64,000 bases of DNA. It comes from a virus. Taxonomy: Duplodnaviria; Caudoviricetes. The stretch's first letter is position 1, and every line of letters starts with the position of its first letter. The notes below the pieces were generated by a model. It saw nothing but the letters and a program-made list of their open reading frames with translations. It made no database searches and was not told the DNA's origin. The DNA is taken from positions 8,190 to 72,189 of the IMG/VR virus record IMGVR_UViG_3300005937_000009; one strand, 5' to 3'. The position numbers were made by a program, and so were the translations under genes. Positions 7,369-64,000 of the stretch are shown one piece after another.

Positions 7369-8694
7369 TTATCTCCGATATTCGTAGCCGTCTCGTGTCA
7401 ATTGCTCGATCGCCTGCGCCTTGGTCTTTCCGGTCTCATCCATCATGAATTGAATGAACTTCTCATCGGCTACCGGTTTCTGCGCGCTCCGCATCTGCGG
7501 CGTTGGCTGCTGCACGCGGGCCTTGACGTAAGGCCATCCGTCCTGTTCGCCTATCTCGACATCATCCCCGTACAGGTCTTTCATCTCCTGCGCCTTGTCC
7601 CTGGCCTGCTGGATGAGCCCCGCCTTCGCGTCCATGTCGGTTTCGGCGTTGGCATCGGCCTTCAACTTGTCGAACTCTTTCGTTGAGGCTTTGATTGAGT
7701 TGAGGAGAGCGGTATTAGTTTTACCTTCCTTGGTGCCGCTTACGCTGCGGTCTTTGGCGTAGGGGTTGCGGGTAATCTGTCCCGTGCGGCGGTTGAGTAT
7801 TCCGCCCTCCGTCGATGTATAAGCGTCCTGCTGCGCTTTACCCTTAAACTGTTTCCCCTTGTTCTCCGGTGCGTTGAGGTCGATATATCCCCGGTCGGTC
7901 TCGACCCAATGCGGTGTGTATTTCGGCCCCTGCTTCAGCTTCTCGCGCTCATTGGCGGTCTGATCTGCCCTGCGCTGAGCTTCCGATTGCTGGTTAGCGA
8001 TTTGAGACCGCTTGTACTCCTGTTCAAGCTGCGCCTGCTGCGCCGCCGCGTTCGCCGCCGCCTGCTGATCCTCAAGGCCATAGCGTTCGAGGATCTTGGG
8101 CTTGATCTGCTCTTCGAACTCCATGCCGCGCTCGGTGCGTGGCGAGAATCCCGCGACCGCTCCGCGAGCCAATCCGCCGCCGATTGCGCCGCCGATATCG
8201 CCCGTTGCCCCGTAACCCTTCAACGCGCCCGCCAGGGCAGGCAAGAGCGCCCCCTTCAATCTCGCGCCGAAACCGGTAGGCGTCGGGCCATTCCTGTACA
8301 CGTCCCGCGCTTCCTGCATCTCTTCGGCCCGCGTCTGGGGTCCGACGATAGGGCCGGCACCGACGACCCCACCGGGAACATTCGGCGCGGGTTCGGTGGT
8401 TGCGATCGGCGGACGGACCATAGGAGGCATAGCCGGCGCGGGCTTCTTCCTTTGCCCGAATACCGACGTTTGCGCGGCCTGCGCCATGGGGTTCTGCCTG
8501 ATCTGCGGCATGCTGGCCTCCGGGTTGAATCCCGGCGTCATGGGGATTGGTGGCCGGTAATTGGGGGCCTGGTCGTCTTCCCCCAATTCCCCCAATTTGC
8601 CGAGCGCTGAAGGTATCTTCTGTATGCCCTGGCCCGCTGCTCCTAACCCCCTGGCCAGAATCCCCGGAATTTGCGCGAGAAAATCCAACGCCAT
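7369..8694 (-). CDS. Probable ejection (internal core) protein
   Basis: 441 aa, Gly/Ala-rich helices plus Q/E coiled coil; lies between nozzle/GNAT and the giant SLT protein, as in podovirus ejectosome cassettes. Confidence 0.55.
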   Translation of the reverse strand: MALDFLAQIPGILARGLGAAGQGIQKIPSALGKLGELGEDDQAPNYRPPIPMTPGFNPEASMPQIRQNPMAQAAQTSVFGQRKKPAPAMPPMVRPPIATTEPAPNVPGGVVGAGPIVGPQTRAEEMQEARDVYRNGPTPTGFGARLKGALLPALAGALKGYGATGDIGGAIGGGLARGAVAGFSPRTERGMEFEEQIKPKILERYGLEDQQAAANAAAQQAQLEQEYKRSQIANQQSEAQRRADQTANEREKLKQGPKYTPHWVETDRGYIDLNAPENKGKQFKGKAQQDAYTSTEGGILNRRTGQITRNPYAKDRSVSGTKEGKTNTALLNSIKASTKEFDKLKADANAETDMDAKAGLIQQARDKAQEMKDLYGDDVEIGEQDGWPYVKARVQQPTPQMRSAQKPVADEKFIQFMMDETGKTKAQAIEQLTRDGYEYRR

Positions 8695-39837: not shown

Positions 39838-40119
39838 TTAGAACTGGAAGAAAGCGGCATAATGCGCATTGATTAACGGGGTTAGCCGATACTCTAATCT
39901 GGTCAGTTGCAGGCCATCGGCTAACCCACCCTTACTACCACTAGGCGTTGATATATCATGGGCGTGCGCACCATGGCAAGGGAATTGGAGAGAAGGGGAT
40001 AAGGGAAGCGAGAGGGAAAAAGAAGGGGCTAACCGGTAAGGTTAACCCCGTCACCTATTGCCTTTAGTGTGAAAATGGCTCAAAAAACCACTCAATGTCT
40101 TATCTTCAGCGTGCGCACC

Positions 40120-56769: not shown

Positions 56770-57072
56770 CTACATGGGTATCACTTCCTCAAGGTGCGGA
56801 AACTGCATTGGTCGCATTGGGACTGGTGCGATGCTCATCACGCAATAGCCTTCTCTGATGCCTCCCAATGCAATATCACCGGGCATGATATAGAGCACCT
56901 GAACCAACGTACTGCGCTCGGTGTATTGGCCGGTGTGCGGGTTCCACTCCCGCAAGTGCAATGTATCACCGACAGCGAATGCCCGGTCATTCTTTCGCAC
57001 TTCGAAAGTCTTGGCCCCTTCCATGATGGCCTGGAAGTATTGCGGCCAGGTCTTGAGTTCGTGAATGTTCAT
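56770..57072 (-). CDS. ASCH/DUF3850-family protein
   Basis: IHELKTWPQYFQAI..GAKTFEVRKNDR.F.VGD.L.LREW. Confidence 0.85.
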   Translation of the reverse strand: MNIHELKTWPQYFQAIMEGAKTFEVRKNDRAFAVGDTLHLREWNPHTGQYTERSTLVQVLYIMPGDIALGGIREGYCVMSIAPVPMRPMQFPHLEEVIPM

Positions 57073-57078
57073 AGTCTC

Positions 57079-57528
57079 TTAATCGTTGTCGCTGATGTTG
57101 GCTACACCTTCTAAGTAGAACTGATTTCGCACGTTGATGGGTAACCCGGTAGCCTTCCTGATCTTGTTAATCGTTTTCTTGCCAATGCGATGCGGATTAC
57201 TTGGGCTGGTTATCTGATACATCCAGCCGGAGGAGATGTTGAGTGCTTCGGCCAACGCCTTCTTAGTCTTGAATCCGTTTTTCTTCTTGGGGTCAAGTGC
57301 GCCCCCAAGAAATCGCCTCAGTCCGCCATCGTAAAAGACGGCCGGGGGTGCTCCCATCACAATAGCGAGTTTCTTACGCTGCTCGGCTTCACTCTCTTCA
57401 ATTATTCTTTGCTCTGCTCTGGCTGTATTTTCTGGACTCTTCACAAGCCGGGGTCTCTCGATCGGCTGGGTCGTCGCTGCTCTCTTTGGCTGTTTTACGG
57501 TTGGTTTCTGTCGCTGAATAATGCTCAT
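57079..57528 (-). CDS. HTH (XRE/Cro-like) protein
   Basis: KKALAEALNISSGWMYQI. Confidence 0.6.
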   Translation of the reverse strand: MSIIQRQKPTVKQPKRAATTQPIERPRLVKSPENTARAEQRIIEESEAEQRKKLAIVMGAPPAVFYDGGLRRFLGGALDPKKKNGFKTKKALAEALNISSGWMYQITSPSNPHRIGKKTINKIRKATGLPINVRNQFYLEGVANISDND

Positions 57529-58472
57529 TCATCCTCCATGATTTTCTCGGCCATGCATTTAAAGGTGTCTTTATCGCGCTGTGGGAATGTCTCAGCCTTT
57601 GATAATTGGTCGAGGTAGGTAACTATAAACTTATTCGCCTTCAGTGTCATTTCACACAGGCGCATATCTTCCATCGGTCCCGTGACTGTCACTGTGAGAG
57701 TTGTAAAGGTGGTAATGTTCCATCGGTTCGGCGTCTCCAAATTATCCAACGCGGGTATGGATTCCGTTAACGCGTGAGTGTTAATTGTGGGGAGAGAATT
57801 TGCCGGGGGCTGCGTTGCCGGCTTGTGGCCATTGGTCTCTTTCACCGGGTTATTTATCTCTTGGCTTGCGCGGCCATGCGAAGTGCAGACATTGATGCAA
57901 CGATCGAAATAAGTGGCCGGCTTGCCGAAATAGACCGCGAGTTTAGCGGCATTATGCCGGCTCACATTCCGCAATGTCTTGCCGTCTTGAAGATGATTAT
58001 TATACTGTATAACTTGCAGGCTGCTTCTTGGTATTCCAGATTCCCTACAGATATCAACCAATGTTTTATTGATTCTCGCCTTCTCTATCAAGGGTAGCGC
58101 GAGATCGGCAAATGTCGGGCCGGTCTTCTTGTGGCCGTTCTGGGGTGATTTTGGTTTTGGTGATGGCGCAGTCTTGTTTTTCTTTTTTTTACCCCGGCTG
58201 CGCGGTACGTAGTTGGAAATATTGATACAGTGATCAAAATAGTCGTCGGGTTTGCCTAATCGGCGCGCTGCCATTATTGCCATGTCCCGTGATACGCCCA
58301 TCAATGCACCGTTTGCCTTATATCTCGGCGCTAGCGCTTGACAGAGGCTACCGGGCAATAATCCGCTGTCGGTACACATCGCGGTAAGGTTCAATGGCGG
58401 GTCGTGCTCCTGCATCGCTTGTCGGCAGGCTTCATGGAATGCAATCCCCTTGTTCTTCTGTGACATATCCAT
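57525..58472 (-). CDS. Protein with two tandem XRE-like HTH domains
   Basis: Duplicated module ..SG...SL...VSR..A......GKP..YFD.CIN. Confidence 0.6.
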   Translation of the reverse strand: MDMSQKNKGIAFHEACRQAMQEHDPPLNLTAMCTDSGLLPGSLCQALAPRYKANGALMGVSRDMAIMAARRLGKPDDYFDHCINISNYVPRSRGKKKKNKTAPSPKPKSPQNGHKKTGPTFADLALPLIEKARINKTLVDICRESGIPRSSLQVIQYNNHLQDGKTLRNVSRHNAAKLAVYFGKPATYFDRCINVCTSHGRASQEINNPVKETNGHKPATQPPANSLPTINTHALTESIPALDNLETPNRWNITTFTTLTVTVTGPMEDMRLCEMTLKANKFIVTYLDQLSKAETFPQRDKDTFKCMAEKIMEDE

Positions 58473-58479
58473 CTCCTCT

Positions 58480-58953
58480 CTAACTGACCTTTGGCAACTT
58501 CAGTTTAGGCAATACTTCTTGCCCGTTGCTCACCTTATTGATCGTGACCACGTTCGCATTTTGCGCAATCATCGTTAGGACGATTCCAGACGCATCCAGG
58601 CGTAGCCTCTGTTCTGCTGTCAATTGAGATCTATCTTCGGGGGTCACATGTTGCAGGGTCTTCAGTCCGCGCACTGCGGCCCGGCGTGCGCCTTTGACTT
58701 TTCGATCGACCTTTCGCGTTTTGTCCTGCGGGTCACATCGCCTGAGACCAGTTCCCCGTACAATTTCGAACATAAAATGCTTTTCGTTCTCTAAAATGCG
58801 TTGAGCAGAGCGGAGATAGGGAGCGGCTTTCTTTTGTACATTCTCCCCTATAGCTTCGGACAATTCGCCGTAGCTGATCAAGTCGCCCTCTTTCATCTCG
58901 CTCAACAATGATACTAGCTGTTCGGTCTCAGGTCTTCTTGTCCAGTTGTTCAT
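58480..58953 (-). CDS. Probable winged-helix partner of the Cas7-like gene
   Basis: GDLISYGELSEAIG..YLRSAQRIL..F.IVRGTGLRR; its SD (AAGGAG) is the end of pentamer tract C. Confidence 0.6.
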   Translation of the reverse strand: MNNWTRRPETEQLVSLLSEMKEGDLISYGELSEAIGENVQKKAAPYLRSAQRILENEKHFMFEIVRGTGLRRCDPQDKTRKVDRKVKGARRAAVRGLKTLQHVTPEDRSQLTAEQRLRLDASGIVLTMIAQNANVVTINKVSNGQEVLPKLKLPKVS

Positions 58954-58968
58954 ATTGCATAAATCTCC

Positions 58969-59494
58969 TTGTCTCGTCTTGTGTTGGCATGTGATGTCCG
59001 GTTTCGTTTGGTCTGATCATGTCGGGGCGCGTCATATGCCGTCAGATCTAATCTAATCTCGTCTCGTCTGGTCGTATCGTGGTTTTTTACATTGCGTCTT
59101 GTCGCGTCCTGTCCTGTCAGGTCATATTGAGTCGCGTTGTATCCCGTTGCATCATGTCTTGACTGGGTAACCGATGATAGCGATATAAATTCTTGTCGTG
59201 TGTCGTCAAGTCGAATCAAGTCGAATCGCGTGAAATCCAGTGTTATCGCATCGCATCGAGTGTTATCCTGTCATTACTAGTCACGTCGAGACTAGTCACG
59301 TCGAGTCGCATCAGGTCAAATTGAGTCCGATGTTGTCTGATCTAGTCATTTCATATCCCGCCGCTTCTGGTCGTGGAAAACTATAAGTGCAAGATATTCT
59401 CGTCTTGTGTTGTGTTGGCATGTGTAGTTTGGTGTCATCTCGTCAAATCCCATCTTATGCCATCTGGTTTCATCACATGGCGTCTCGTCTTGTC
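58969..59494 (-). repeat. Three phased xAY-NN pentamer tracts downstream of the Cas7-like gene (A 59395-59494, B 59188-59372, C 58969-59163)
   Basis: 20, 37 and 39 consecutive in-phase 5-nt units, e.g. GAC AA GAC GA GAC GC CAT GT GAT GA, separated by 22-24 nt linkers. Confidence 0.9.
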
Positions 59495-60071
59495 ATTGCG
59501 CCTCAAGATTGATCCATTCAGCGTCCGAAACATCAAACCGCCCATAAATCCCGTTGTTCTGTACTCGGAATGAACCGACGCCGATAAATGCCCCCGCCTG
59601 TTTCAAATACCTGATAAATATCTCCTCTGTGATCAAATCATCAAGAATGTACCACTGCACGGTGCCATTCCAAGCATCAATGCGCGGGAATGTCCGCAGG
59701 ACACGCGAAGATCCGCCGCGTTTGCCGTCGGCCGGTACAAAGCGGGTCTCCCCTTGTACCTGATCGGCTTTGATGTGTAGGTCTACCGGGTCCATTACCA
59801 GAATCCCAGACACAAAATGCTTGGTCCAAGTGGCTTGACCCTTTCCCTTGATTTTCTCTCCTAGAAATTGTGCGGCAGCGCTGATACAGTTCTTAAACGC
59901 GAAAGGGGGAATAAAGACCATACCGTCTGCGTTGATGTGCATGCGATTACGCCATGTTCGCTGTTCGTATGCTTCCGGGGATTCTTTGGTATTTTCTTTC
60001 GGGGTATTATGAAAACGCGAAAACGAAATGGGGGCCAGGGATTTTAAATGAGTCTTACATAGCCTTGTCAT
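59493..60071 (-). CDS. Standalone RAMP/Cas7(Csm3)-like protein (Vipr-like)
   Basis: beta1 LKSLAPISFS, FIPPFAFKNCISAAA, RVLRTFPRI..W, G-rich loop LKQAGAFIGVGSFRVQNNGIYGRFDV; no other cas genes nearby. Confidence 0.75.
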   Translation of the reverse strand: MTRLCKTHLKSLAPISFSRFHNTPKENTKESPEAYEQRTWRNRMHINADGMVFIPPFAFKNCISAAAQFLGEKIKGKGQATWTKHFVSGILVMDPVDLHIKADQVQGETRFVPADGKRGGSSRVLRTFPRIDAWNGTVQWYILDDLITEEIFIRYLKQAGAFIGVGSFRVQNNGIYGRFDVSDAEWINLEAQ

Positions 60072-60097
60072 AGTCTCCTATATGCTCCTTCAATTGA

Positions 60098-60603
60098 TAT
60101 TCTTGTCGGGTCTAGTCTAGTTGTGTGTTGTCCCGTGTTGTCTGGTCGTGTCCCGTCTGGTCGTGTAGAATGCCGTCCAATCCTGTCTAATCACGTCGGG
60201 TGCATGATGTCTTTCTCCTCTCTCCTGATGGGTAGCTATCTCGTCTTGTGTCGTGACATCTGGTCTCATGTTGTCAAGCCTTGTCCCGTCCGGACTGGTC
60301 AGATGTAATCGCATGTTGTCGCGTCATATCTCATGACGTGAGGTGGTGTTCGGTTATATCCCGTTGCGTCGAGTTGCATCTAATCGCATCAAGTAGGGTC
60401 ATATCTGGTCATATCTGGTCATATCTGGTCATGGTAAATCCTCTTACAAGATAATAGCCATTACTACTAGGTGAACTCTCGTCTTGTCGTATGCCATCCT
60501 GTTCCATCTGATCGTATCCCGTCATATCAGGTTGTGTCGGGTTGAGTCTTGTTCTGAGTTATCTTGTCCCATCACATTCCATCCCGTGATATCCCGTCTA
60601 GTC
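60098..60603 (-). repeat. Three phased xAY-NN pentamer tracts upstream of the Cas7-like gene (D 60474-60603, E 60236-60440, F 60098-60202)
   Basis: 26, 41 and 21 consecutive in-phase 5-nt units separated by 33-nt linkers. Confidence 0.9.
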
Positions 60604-60607
60604 ATGG

Positions 60608-60674
60608 GTGCGCATTCAATTTCACTTGACGTGCGCACAGGGCAAGTATAGACTGAGTATTGCAAACAATACAA
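60608..60674. promoter_or_regulatory. Overlapping divergent promoters with paired GTGCGCA(T/C) boxes
   Basis: Boxes at 60608 and 60631; plus TTGACG-17-TAGACT (60626-60654); minus TTGTAT-18-TATACT (60674-60645). Confidence 0.65.
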
Positions 60675-60694
60675 GGGATTTTACCTAGTAGCTA

Positions 60695-60901
60695 ATGAGT
60701 AAAAATGATCGATTGATTACCACCATGGAGGCCGCCGAAATGCTCGGCGTGACCGATATTGCCATCAGGCAGCGGATATATCGGGGCACGCTCACGGCGC
60801 AGAAGCCAAAGGGTAGCCGTCAATGGTGGGTATGGTGCTCGGCAATTGAGCGCATTAAGCAGGAGAAAAACAGGATAGAGAACCCGGCCCGCCCTCGGTA
60901 A
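60695..60901 (+). CDS. Excisionase/MerR-like HTH protein
   Basis: LITTMEAAEMLGVTDIAIRQRIYRGTL.A.K..RQWWV. Confidence 0.8.
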   Translation: MSKNDRLITTMEAAEMLGVTDIAIRQRIYRGTLTAQKPKGSRQWWVWCSAIERIKQEKNRIENPARPR

Positions 60902-61002
60902 AGGGAAGTTACCGAACTACGAGCGGGCCTTGACCGACAACGGGGTAGCGCTGTCGGCGTTCGCTTTTTAGCACGCCCAGCGCTCTAAACCAAGAGAGCG
61001 CA

Positions 61003-61239
61003 ATGAGAACCATTGATTTAATATTGTGGGAAACCGTGCAATGCACCAGCGGGCATATCACGGATACCGTGATTGTGCCCAAGGATCTCGCAGAGGAAGC
61101 CGGCTTCAGCCAGGGGGAGCGGGCCGACTATCGGGACTATGAACAACTGGAACAGCGCGAGCGGCAGATTGAGCGGCGACGGCGCATGATTCCCCCGGCT
61201 CCAGCACGCGAAGCGAGGCCGCGCAGGAGGGCGGCATGA
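61003..61239 (+). CDS. Hypothetical protein
   Basis: 78 aa, ATGA overlap with the next gene. Confidence 0.5.
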   Translation: MRTIDLILWETVQCTSGHITDTVIVPKDLAEEAGFSQGERADYRDYEQLEQRERQIERRRRMIPPAPAREARPRRRAA

Positions 61240-61865
61240 TCAATCACGATTGGCCGGACATCTATATTGATCCGATGCGATGGCCGGGAGAGGAAGACGA
61301 ACCGTATCACGCGCCGTCCCCTGCCCCGGCCAGCTATGCGCCCTCTCCCGAACCAGTATACGCTCAATCTTCGGGCTATGGCTGACAGTCCGATTCCTGC
61401 GGGTCGCAGGAGAGCGGAGGCGGCAGGCAACTATGGGCGCATCGGGATCATGAGGGTAGCCAGTCGCAGGCTAACCACGAGTTCGGGCATGTGGCCATGG
61501 GTAGGGCGCTTGGATATCAACTCGGTGGCGCGCAGATCGGGGGTAGCCCGCAAGCCCATGGCGATATTCCCGAAAGCCAGGCTTACCATCGAGCGCTGTA
61601 CTACGTCGCGGGTGGCGTGGCCAACGAACTCTTGGGCGGCAACGAGTGGGGGCGCTTTTCAGATGAAGATGTAGCGGTGACCGAAAGGTGCGCGGCCAGG
61701 GTCGGCAAGAGCCTTGAGGATATCAAAGATGATGCCCGAGAGAGATTGCAAAAGCCCGAAGTTATGGCCGCGCTCAGATCTGGGGCGCATCGGTTGAGAA
61801 ATTATGGTTGGGTGAGCAGCTCAGAAGCTACGGCAATCTGTAGACAAGCGGGGATGAAGGTATGA
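61236..61865 (+). pseudogene. HExxH metallopeptidase-like gene interrupted by one in-frame TGA (61383-61385)
   Basis: SD AGGAGG + ATG 61236; after the TGA the same frame gives ANHEFGHVA...YVAGGVANE...DED..., ending at 61865. Confidence 0.6.
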
Positions 61866-62455
61866 CTGGTTATGATTGGGATGCATTGAAGGTCGCGGAT
61901 TACGTGTTGTTCGATGCCGCGCGGGAGCGGCGCAACGATTTACCGAAATATCTACAGAAGCCGGCAGAGGTGTTGAGGAAGACGCAATATATGTGGGCTC
62001 ACCTTCAATGCTCATTCTGGCACGGTGGCGAATATGAGCTTACGCATTGGACCCGATGCACAAAGGAGGGCGTTCTCTTGGAGTCCAAGGGCGCACAGAG
62101 CTACACGCGGCGATTGTTTCGAGAGGGCAGTTTTCATGCTCACTTCCCCGACGTTGAGCGCCGATGCGGGCCGCGCGGTGTGACAGAGTTTCTCTACGAA
62201 GTTCTGATCGAGACTCAAAAACTTAATCGCCATGGTTATGTCTTTGATCAAGAGGAGATCGAAAGATATTGGTTGCGGACCTACAGCGGCAGTAATCCCG
62301 TGCTGACCTGCGAGGAGATCGCAGAGCGAGCGTGCGAGTATTTCAAGCGCGCTCTGGAGTCGAGCCAGCAACCACAACTTATTCGGGTCCGTTTCGCCCC
62401 CATGGGCGCGGCCCGGTGGACAGAGGCGGAATGGAAGCCGACAGCAAGGAGATGA
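61862..62455 (+). CDS. Hypothetical protein, C-terminal half possibly T-fold (QueD-like)
   Basis: FHAHF..CG..G..YEVLIE..L...GYVFD..CEEIA. Confidence 0.45.
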   Translation: MTGYDWDALKVADYVLFDAARERRNDLPKYLQKPAEVLRKTQYMWAHLQCSFWHGGEYELTHWTRCTKEGVLLESKGAQSYTRRLFREGSFHAHFPDVERRCGPRGVTEFLYEVLIETQKLNRHGYVFDQEEIERYWLRTYSGSNPVLTCEEIAERACEYFKRALESSQQPQLIRVRFAPMGAARWTEAEWKPTARR

Positions 62456-62459
62456 CAAG

Positions 62460-62756
62460 ATGACATTCAAGAAGTTCCCGACGAAGGAAGCGCTGAGCCT
62501 GGCTCGTGAGCATTGCTCGCGGGGATCAAGGTATACACACGAACAGGTTGCCGACGATATCCATGAGGCAGGTTTGCACTTTGACGATTGGGCGGCAGCC
62601 GCAAGGCAAATACAGGATATAGATCCTGATGATGAAGATGAGGATACTTTAGAAGCTGAATCACATATTGGTGAAGTTGAAGATCATTACCGCTCAGTGG
62701 ATAGGGAACAATTAACTTTAAAGCAACTCCGCAGACGGGATGATGAGCGGTGGTAG
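62460..62756 (+). CDS. Hypothetical protein with acidic patch
   Basis: SD AGGAG; DIDPDDEDEDTLE. Confidence 0.55.
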   Translation: MTFKKFPTKEALSLAREHCSRGSRYTHEQVADDIHEAGLHFDDWAAAARQIQDIDPDDEDEDTLEAESHIGEVEDHYRSVDREQLTLKQLRRRDDERW

Positions 62757-62774
62757 AGAAGTAAGAGAGGATGT

Positions 62775-64000
62775 ATGGACTGGACCCCGAAGAGACCAAC
62801 GCCGATTCACTGGATCAGGCAAATCATTGAACCGAGAGAGCCCGAGCCGCCGAAGATTGAGCGGCCAGGTGAAGTCTACGCCGACGCGCGATATGACCTC
62901 CCTGCCCTGATCTGCCGGCTATCGATCGGCATTGTGGTATTAGCCGCCTTTCGCCTGCCCTGGATCTTCGTGGGCATCCTGGCGGTAATCTATTGGTGTA
63001 TCCATGGTCTCAGCAAAACCTTTGCCCGGTATATGGACCACGGCGATTTTACCTTGTCCCTGTCCATGTCGCTGGTCGTCTGGGCGCTCATCGCCTGGCA
63101 GGTCGTGACGCTGGGAGGGCAAGCCGCCGTAGAGGTGGTGTATCGGCTCAAAATTGACGAAGAAGCGGGGTATGTCTCGCAAAAGGCTGCCTACCCTGCG
63201 GACCTTGAAAAATTCTGGAAAGACGAGAATGCAAGGCAAAACGCCTGGCGTGAACGGGAAGCGGCGCGAGCTGAACGGGAGAAAGTGAGGCAGGCCGCGA
63301 GCGCTGAGACCACGAAGCAGGTTAGAGCCCTGCTGGCTCTCAGCAAGTCGAACAAGGACGTTAAAATTAACGGTTCGGTCAGAGCTGGGGAGGGGAACCC
63401 GGAACCACCCGAGGAATTTAAAGCCCGGATGCCCCCTACCCCACCTGTACCGCCCGCGTACAGCGCCGCTGGATTCCTGGCGCGTTGGGCGCTCAGATTA
63501 AAGATTTGGCAGTTGATAGAATTTGGGGTTGCCGTGGTCGGCTTGTTCCTCCTCGTGGTGCGGCGCGTGTGGGTAAACCACAGGGGCCGGGTGAGAATAG
63601 TTTCACAAGAGGATAGGGAACTGTTGCCGCTGGTAAACGGGGACAGGGCTACCCTTTCTAATCTTCAGTCATGGCGGTCCCCTTCCCTGCTGTTAGATGA
63701 CTCTGAAAAACCGGATTCACCATCTGAAATGCCGGATCAGGAGAGCAGGGAAGAGGGAGAGTCGCGGGAGGCTCCCGAAAGCTCCCTAGAAGCCCCCTGC
63801 CCCGTTGAAATGCTCCCAGAGGCTCCCTTGAGTCTCCCTGACTCAACTTCTTATTTAACGGAATGGCAAGAGTGGAAAGCTAATATCTCTCATCAGGCGA
63901 ACAAATTGCGGGCGGGAGACTCGCTTACTCCCTGGATGCATGCCGAAATGTCGGCAATCCGCATTCAGAAGGCAAAAGAAAGCGCTTTCTGGAATGTTAT
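62775..64000 (+). CDS. Membrane protein, 3'-partial (>400 aa)
   Basis: ATG 62775 after GAGG; frame open to the window end (absent from the ORF track); about four hydrophobic helices. Confidence 0.75.
   Translation, partial: MDWTPKRPTPIHWIRQIIEPREPEPPKIERPGEVYADARYDLPALICRLSIGIVVLAAFRLPWIFVGILAVIYWCIHGLSKTFARYMDHGDFTLSLSMSLVVWALIAWQVVTLGGQAAVEVVYRLKIDEEAGYVSQKAAYPADLEKFWKDENARQNAWREREAARAEREKVRQAASAETTKQVRALLALSKSNKDVKINGSVRAGEGNPEPPEEFKARMPPTPPVPPAYSAAGFLARWALRLKIWQLIEFGVAVVGLFLLVVRRVWVNHRGRVRIVSQEDRELLPLVNGDRATLSNLQSWRSPSLLLDDSEKPDSPSEMPDQESREEGESREAPESSLEAPCPVEMLPEAPLSLPDSTSYLTEWQEWKANISHQANKLRAGDSLTPWMHAEMSAIRIQKAKESAFWNV

Follow-up and report, generated by a model that had tools for sequence, protein, structure and literature searches.

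VIPR, first described in preprints in 2026 (bioRxiv 10.64898/2026.04.26.720920 and 10.64898/2026.04.26.720927), is a CRISPR-related system whose small Cas7-like protein forms a coat on RNAs built from five-base repeats. The first of these reported the protein, Vipr, an accessory gene, vap, and vrRNAs of 9–16 GGY-NN repeats with an invariant 3′ tail. The NN dinucleotides read double-stranded DNA, skipping a base for every unit, and the natural targets are rival phages and satellites, with self-targeting absent (10.64898/2026.04.26.720920). The second described a helical filament with one protomer per repeat, in which H17 and D177 contact G1, R138 and W178 contact G2, and a pocket bars purines at position 3 (10.64898/2026.04.26.720927). 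Non-canonical arrays with GAC/NN, CAC/NN, WGT/NN and TGH/NN units were detected by entropy periodicity beside Vipr-like folds in a further preprint (10.64898/2026.10.21.760802).

The locus described here is found in IMG/VR record IMGVR_UViG_3300005937_000009, of which positions 8,190 to 72,189 were analysed (64,000 nucleotides, referred to as the window; coordinates are those of the window unless otherwise stated). The phage contig is a single sequence of 72 kb that was assembled as a circle because its ends overlap, and it represents a tailed phage because genes for a terminase, a major head protein and a tail fibre are present. The locus is thus virus-encoded, as VIPR is, lying in a circularly assembled 72-kb contig with structural genes. 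Seven runs of five-nucleotide units were found on the minus strand at 58969–60603, and these tracts very probably make up the guide array of a VIPR system (vipr, vap and vrRNA array) belonging to this tailed phage. An earlier note on this DNA had proposed a multi-guide array with a constant handle, and this proposal is supported by the same architecture in the 2026 VIPR preprints, by the adjacent Vipr homologue and by a 3′ end found across the clade. The predicted tracts and the two genes associated with them are as follows.

60603-60479, minus strand: vrRNA tract D, 25 units, 3′ end GAC AA GAC GA GAG
60440-60236, minus strand: vrRNA tract E, 41 units in one register, 3′ end CAC AA GAC GA GAT
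60202-60103, minus strand: vrRNA tract F, 20 units, 3′ end GAC CC GAC AA GAA
59493-60071, minus strand: vipr, encoding a 192-aa Cas7-like RAMP protein, phrog_4652
59494-59395, minus strand: vrRNA tract A, 20 units, 3′ end CAC AA GAC GA GAA
59372-59193, minus strand: vrRNA tract B, 36 units, 3′ end CAC AC GAC AA GAA
59158-58969, minus strand: tract C overall, 14 units, a 15-nt in-phase joint and 22 units
59158-59089, minus strand: vrRNA tract C1, 14 units, handle-like end ACAAGACGCAATGT
59078-58969, minus strand: vrRNA tract C2, 22 units, AAAAAACCAC directly before it, 3′ end CAC AA GAC GA GAC AA GGA
58480-58953, minus strand: vap-like accessory gene, 157 aa, phrog_5926, positioned as in relatives

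Read leftward, the order is D-E-F-vipr-A-B-C1-C2-vap, with three tracts before vipr and four between vipr and vap. Tract F ends 31 nt upstream of the vipr start codon, the start of tract A falls within the vipr stop codon, and the 3′ end of C2 overlaps the ribosome-binding site (Shine-Dalgarno sequence, GACAAGGAG) of vap. With the boundaries of this analysis, the linkers measure 38, 33, 22 and 34 nt, which moves the register by 3, 3, 2 and 4 (mod 5). The phase breaks reported in the earlier note therefore stand; the linker lengths given there were 22–33 nt. Tract lengths fall into two clusters, as had been noted, here of 20–25 and 36–41 units (previously 20–26 and 37–41).

A total of 178 xAY-NN units were parsed in the seven runs. 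The first position was G in 71 %, C in 16 % and A in 11 % of the units, the second was A in 94 % and the third was C or T in 98 %, and the constant triplet is xAY rather than strict GAC. All 16 dinucleotides are represented at positions 4 and 5. The locus thus has the features of a vrRNA array, namely five-nucleotide units with a fixed triplet and a hypervariable dinucleotide on the same strand as vipr. The triplet is not the canonical GGY, as GGC is found in just 2 of the 178 units, but this leaves membership of VIPR standing because GAC/NN arrays have been counted as divergent VIPR (10.64898/2026.10.21.760802). When the plus strand was scanned for in-phase GTC/ATC (GAC/GAT on the minus strand), up to 15/20 were found per 100 nt, and these values were confined to 58951–60640. 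The background reached at most 5–6 elsewhere in the window and 7 across all 72,189 bp of the genome, and the strict 5-nt period is found at a single locus in the 72-kb phage genome. A very strong 6-/12-nt periodicity (lag-6 identity 0.86) was also seen outside the window, at G000:C1:3032-3300, and is unrelated to the pentamer tracts.

A search of Rfam with 58000–61500 (E up to 1) and a blastn search of the locus against phage records both gave no match. No CRISPR direct repeats of 25–40 nt were detected near the locus, where only periods of 8–20 nt were found, and no other cas genes were found among the ORFs beside it (56770–63998). A gene for a DUF3850/ASCH-domain protein (a putative RNA-binding fold) belongs to the same leftward string as vap, three genes further downstream (56770–57072, minus strand).

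The 192-aa protein had no match in Pfam and belongs to a PHROGs family (phrog_4652) of unknown function. An AlphaFold model built with 22 homologues as input had a pLDDT of 95.4, and the top matches to this model in a Foldseek search of the PDB were type VII Cas7 and Csm3, with Cmr subunits also found (E down to 2.6e-9). [quoted passage not shown] On the basis of the predicted structure and the profile match, the gene product is a Vipr homologue, a RAMP protein of the Cas7/Csm3 type, and it is a single-RRM RAMP homologous to a characterised Vipr. Binding by a TRAP-like ring, Rho-loading sites and primase-site arrays were early ideas that were dropped once the Cas7 fold appeared.

When the Vipr sequence was used in a tblastn search of phage records, only LESphi2 was found (28 % identity) and SUSP1 was not reached. 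LESphi2 (Pseudomonas phage vB_Pae_LESphi2, GenBank accession number OQ594955.1, bases 1900–2926) is a cultured P. aeruginosa LES phage and the only match to a named phage. It includes three canonical GGC-NN tracts with long tails, directly upstream of the gene for the matching protein, which is annotated as a 'hypothetical protein' and lies near cI/cro; the record carries no VIPR annotation.

The 157-aa protein was 35 % identical (E 2e-8) to the product of the gene after vipr in one more distant relative (L023) and 65 % identical to that of the corresponding neighbour in the nearest relative, L150. An accessory gene that is syntenic and homologous in both relatives is thus found beside vipr, as in VIPR. 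A weak winged-helix match was obtained, and the product is a probable winged-helix DNA binder.

The array is set in a divergent control region, with the genes to the left on the minus strand and a gene starting in the opposite direction to the right. The following features were found in this region and in one of the linkers.

From 60695, plus strand (rightward): HTH/excisionase-like gene
60645-60674, minus strand: candidate leftward promoter, TTGTAT (weak -35), 18-nt spacer, TATACT (good -10)
60608-60638: palindrome GTGCGCAC and a TGCGCAC half-copy, between the candidate promoter and tract D
59373-59394, minus strand: A-B linker, with TATAGTTTTCC just 5′ of tract B

The pair TTGTAT/TATACT is a candidate for the promoter that would drive the array. 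It scored under the threshold of a consensus scan, and the region is conserved in L150. The same scan for promoters and terminators found no minus-strand promoter in the linkers. The palindrome is present in six copies in the window compared with 1.4 expected; in addition to the copy at 60631–60638, it was found at 39964, 40111, 47152, 54148 and 54171. The TGCGCAC half-copy lies 16 nt on from the copy at 60631–60638, in a stretch that is also conserved in L150, and as RNA 60608–60638 has a predicted fold of -13.9 kcal/mol (z -2.1). This stretch may serve as a pair of operators or, alternatively, form a hairpin in the 5′ leader, and the VIPR operon and other control regions of the phage may share a repressor. 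Motifs resembling TATAGTTTTCC precede tracts in three of the relatives (L001, L021 and L091) and these could be a -10-like promoter element or a 5′ leader. When the sequences before 208 tracts were examined for TAnnnT or runs of T, the positional enrichment was weak.

The ends of the tracts were examined in this phage and across the clade. The six 3′ ends quoted in the earlier note were all exact, and the 15-mer that it had found in both A and C (CACATGCCAACACAA) was confirmed at 59410–59424 and 58979–58993; the extended 3′ end of tract A is thus common to C2. In 214 non-redundant tracts from 79 loci, NN was AA in 59 %, 57 % and 35 % of cases in the last three units compared with 8 % in the interior, and in 79 % the last unit was followed by the first triplet base. 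The rule for this handle is therefore the triplet followed by AA, two or three times, and then the first triplet base, whatever the triplet, and it was seen alike in the GAC, GGC, CGC, CTC and GTT types. In this phage the handle is xAC-AA GAC-GA GA or GAC-AA GA (the ACAAGACGAGA handle), in L150 it is GAT-AA GAC-AA/GA GAT, and the guides of LESphi2 have the 3′ end GGCAAGGG. Because the rule holds across the clade and in L150, and the constant motif is found in all seven predicted guides of this phage, the comparison identifies the shared 3′ end as a conserved part of the RNA rather than a chance feature of this locus. Tracts and linkers alike were predicted to fold no better than shuffled controls (z -1.7 to +1.9) and no structured tail or pseudoknot was predicted, the linkers having z values of -0.4 to +1.9. 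Such a lack of predicted structure in the tracts is what a scaffold meant for coating should show.

The handle was also used to assess the suggestion in the earlier note that long tracts may be two guides. This is supported for tract C, where an internal handle-like end is followed by a leader like that of tract B, but not for B or E. The end of C1, ACAAGACGCAATGT, is close to the canonical ACAAGACGAGAATAT, and the bases after it, AAAAAACCAC, resemble the TTTTCCAC that precedes tract B. From these signals tract C is read as two guides, C1 and C2, the register being kept across them because the joint is 15 nt. No internal double-AA handle was found in B (36 units) or E (41 units). The number of units per tract in the clade has a median of 13, a 90th percentile of 21 and a maximum of 43, making B and E outliers. 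Perfect or near-perfect tandem duplications that keep the register were found in these two tracts at 60397–60432, 59276–59305, 59225–59267 and 59206–59227. They involve two to four pentamer units, with periods of 10, 15 and 20 nt, and the 5′ part of tract E contains a perfect 10-nt repeat present 3.6 times. The internal perfect duplications of two to four units suggest that B and E grew by slippage. As their length is far above the median and the duplications are slippage-like, parts of B and E may be non-functional.

The nearest relative, L150, has a Vipr that is 63 % identical and a Vap that is 65 % identical to those of this phage. The layout and the GAY units are the same and the promoter/operator region is conserved, while most of the guides differ. 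Units 11–19 and 25–28 of tract E and the 3′ half of tract B are orthologous. In these blocks, which were recognised partly via NN matches, NN was identical at 49 of 54 sites while triplet positions 1 and 3 agreed in 32 of 52 (Fisher 5e-4). The constancy of NN, against drift at positions 1 and 3 among the letters permitted there, points to selection on NN and is as expected if NN carries the information. The composition of NN best fits codon positions 1 and 2 of the phage's genes in the sense orientation (+11.9 bits), all other frame and strand models falling below background, and for guide B the antisense version fits. This codon fit agrees with the published placement of the skipped base at the wobble position.

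Tract F is missing from L150. The sequence after tract E (60203–60235, TACCCATCAGGAGAGA followed by ATG) is matched in L150 by the ribosome-binding region immediately preceding vipr (L150:1000-1037). Because of this match, tract F looks like an insertion between an older ribosome-binding site and ATG and vipr, or was lost in L150.

Relatives of the 192-aa protein are encoded by 224 viral contigs, and others were found in MAGs spread over many phyla, which points to no particular host. For comparison, 84 viral loci and 46 loci in prokaryotic assemblies were fetched, and almost all of them have period-5 tracts flanking the gene on the same strand. The constant triplet varies by locus. GGC was the most common, followed by CGC, GAC, CTC, GTT, GGT and GTC, and CAC, AGT and AGC were each seen at a single locus. 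In an alignment of 73 distinct Viprs, strong covariation was found between the column of residue 167 and triplet position 2. This residue was Arg in 42 of the 43 loci with G at position 2 and in 2 of the 14 with A (Fisher 1.6e-9, uncorrected for relatedness). With A, it was otherwise Phe, Val, Ser, Met, Thr or Gln, and in this phage it is Ser. The profile alignment places this column at D177 of SUSP1, in the G-loop. Triplet position 1 (G or C) tracks residue 21, near the end of the first strand, which appears to sit in the part of the protein that holds SUSP1 H17, residue equivalence being beyond the reach of the profile alignment.

When the triplet was mapped as a label on a quick tree, which is poorly resolved, it was found to cluster, with 23 changes compared with 43.5 for shuffled labels. 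The triplet has switched several times, even inside well-supported small clades, though the count of independent events is uncertain. One possible but doubtful explanation is that triplet specificity can be tuned, mainly through the G-loop residue aligned with D177, where Arg accompanies G at position 2 and any of Ser, Phe, Val, Met and Thr accompanies A. Selection against the loading of rivals' solo guides would then account for the frequent switches (GGC, GAC, CGC, CTC and GTT) seen between closely related Viprs. If this is true, GAY-type and GGY-type systems would be naturally orthogonal.

Targets were sought using the NNx rule (1-nt skip) with exact seeds of 9–12 units from D, C2, A, B, F and E. 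No self-target was found under this rule, as the best 10-unit match of 16–17/20 was equal to the background (own genome and 130 related loci). In IMG/VR, five exact seeds gave 0 or 2 matches and another seed gave 1, and in metagenome contigs two exact seeds gave 0 and 15 matches. As none of these extends past the seed, the seed-only matches are judged to be chance.

If the locus works as the described VIPR systems do, one or several leftward transcripts would cover D-E-F-vipr-A-B-C1-C2-vap. One Vipr protomer would bind each 5-nt unit, holding the xAY triplet in a pocket formed by the G-loop and thumb and leaving NN exposed, and the coated RNA would form a helical filament. The end of each guide would be marked by the constant 3′ sequence (xAC-AA GAC-GA/AA G), and the uncoated linkers would presumably be removed, or each unit would have its own start. 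The filament would read double-stranded DNA by the published NNx rule, with two paired bases and one skipped, and silence genes of competing mobile elements, assisted by the winged-helix Vap. The anatomy of the locus, the homology to SUSP1 Vipr, the clade-wide handle, the selection pattern in NN and the lack of self-targets were obtained here in silico, and for this locus we infer filament formation, the skip rule and silencing only from the preprints on SUSP1 and P. fulva.

Other explanations for the tracts were considered. The position of tract F just before the vipr start and the overlap of the C2 handle with the vap Shine-Dalgarno sequence, together with handles that abut ribosome-binding sites in relatives too, would fit tracts that are mainly cis-regulatory leaders, with Vipr coating the RNA upstream of vipr and vap and controlling translation without guiding in trans. 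However, seven tracts with diverse NN far exceed the need of a leader, NN is conserved between relatives while the triplet drifts, and the published systems act in trans. We consider such a main function unlikely, and cis-regulation could be an additional role of the guides rather than an alternative. The tracts might also act at the DNA level, as arrays of protein-binding or primase sites with GTC every 5 bp on the plus strand, for example in an origin or packaging signal. The trinucleotide recognised by the T7 primase is 5′-GTC-3′, and the locus sits at a divergent control region. Against this, the triplet varies among relatives (GGC, CGC, CTC, GTT and others) but is always on the coding strand of the Cas7-like gene, it covaries with a residue of Vipr predicted to contact RNA, and a spacing of 5 bp is probably too tight for most proteins that bind double-stranded DNA. 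A role as DNA elements is therefore extremely unlikely.

Some or all of the tracts could instead be decoy or hijack RNAs directed against the Vipr of a rival, or they could be remnants in decay that slippage has lengthened. Redirection of a rival's VIPR by solo vrRNAs has been reported (10.64898/2026.10.15.759431), and B and E contain both the perfect 10-, 15- and 20-nt internal duplications and irregular triplets. However, the phage has its own vipr and vap, both intact, its own triplet and handle are common to all of the tracts, and in L150 some segments of B and E are retained with their NN under constraint, making this improbable. A guide array serving the phage's own Vipr is the reading we prefer.

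The closest described systems are the type II VIPR of Escherichia phage SUSP1 and of a Pseudomonas fulva prophage (10.64898/2026.04.26.720920, 10.64898/2026.04.26.720927 and 10.64898/2026.10.15.759431), which are likewise phage-borne minimal loci. They share with the locus described here a RAMP-fold Vipr, a DNA-binding accessory gene and several intergenic RNAs made of 5-nt units (a fixed triplet and NN) with a constant 3′ end. In both, guides are found upstream and downstream of vipr and self-targets are absent. The Vipr is homologous to that of SUSP1 by profile but too dissimilar for BLAST, and the positions equivalent to D177 in the G-loop and R138 in the thumb are Ser and Phe, respectively. 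The triplet is xAY rather than GGY, the guides are 14–41 units long rather than 9–16, and a short unstructured motif is found at the 3′ end in place of the tail of about 40 nt with a pseudoknot that is characteristic of the SUSP1 clade.

The backbones of Class 1 CRISPR systems (Cas7, Csm3 or Cmr4 on crRNA) share the RAMP fold, with one protomer for each fixed step along the RNA, and likewise have a base-flipping thumb and a constant handle adjoining a variable guide. However, the step is 5 nt with three bases sequestered in VIPR and 6 nt with one flipped base in Class 1 CRISPR, and here there are no CRISPR repeats and the constant part is dispersed through the guide. An analogy can also be drawn with TRAP in Bacillus, an oligomer that reads GAG/UAG with 2–3 spacer bases on unstructured RNA. 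TRAP wraps 11 repeats on a ring, and its function is regulatory with no guide role. Oligomeric reading of a trinucleotide every 5 nt is shared, but the fold is unrelated.

The arrays in 10.64898/2026.10.21.760802 have a fixed non-GGY triplet and NN, adjoin a Vipr-like fold and explicitly include GAC/NN. That study is a survey of clusters, without this locus, the handle, the covarying residue or the orthology of guides, and the CTC, CGC and GTT relatives seen here are unnamed in it, as far as its text shows. The locus is thus a new example of a known system and, because the system and its GAC/NN variant are already in preprints, it opens no new question. To the described systems it adds a well-resolved natural non-GGY example, together with the handle rule, the split of tract C, the covarying residue and the pattern of selection on NN. 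A handle rule that delimits guides, a candidate residue for triplet specificity and NN under apparent selection may aid the annotation and engineering of non-GGY VIPR.
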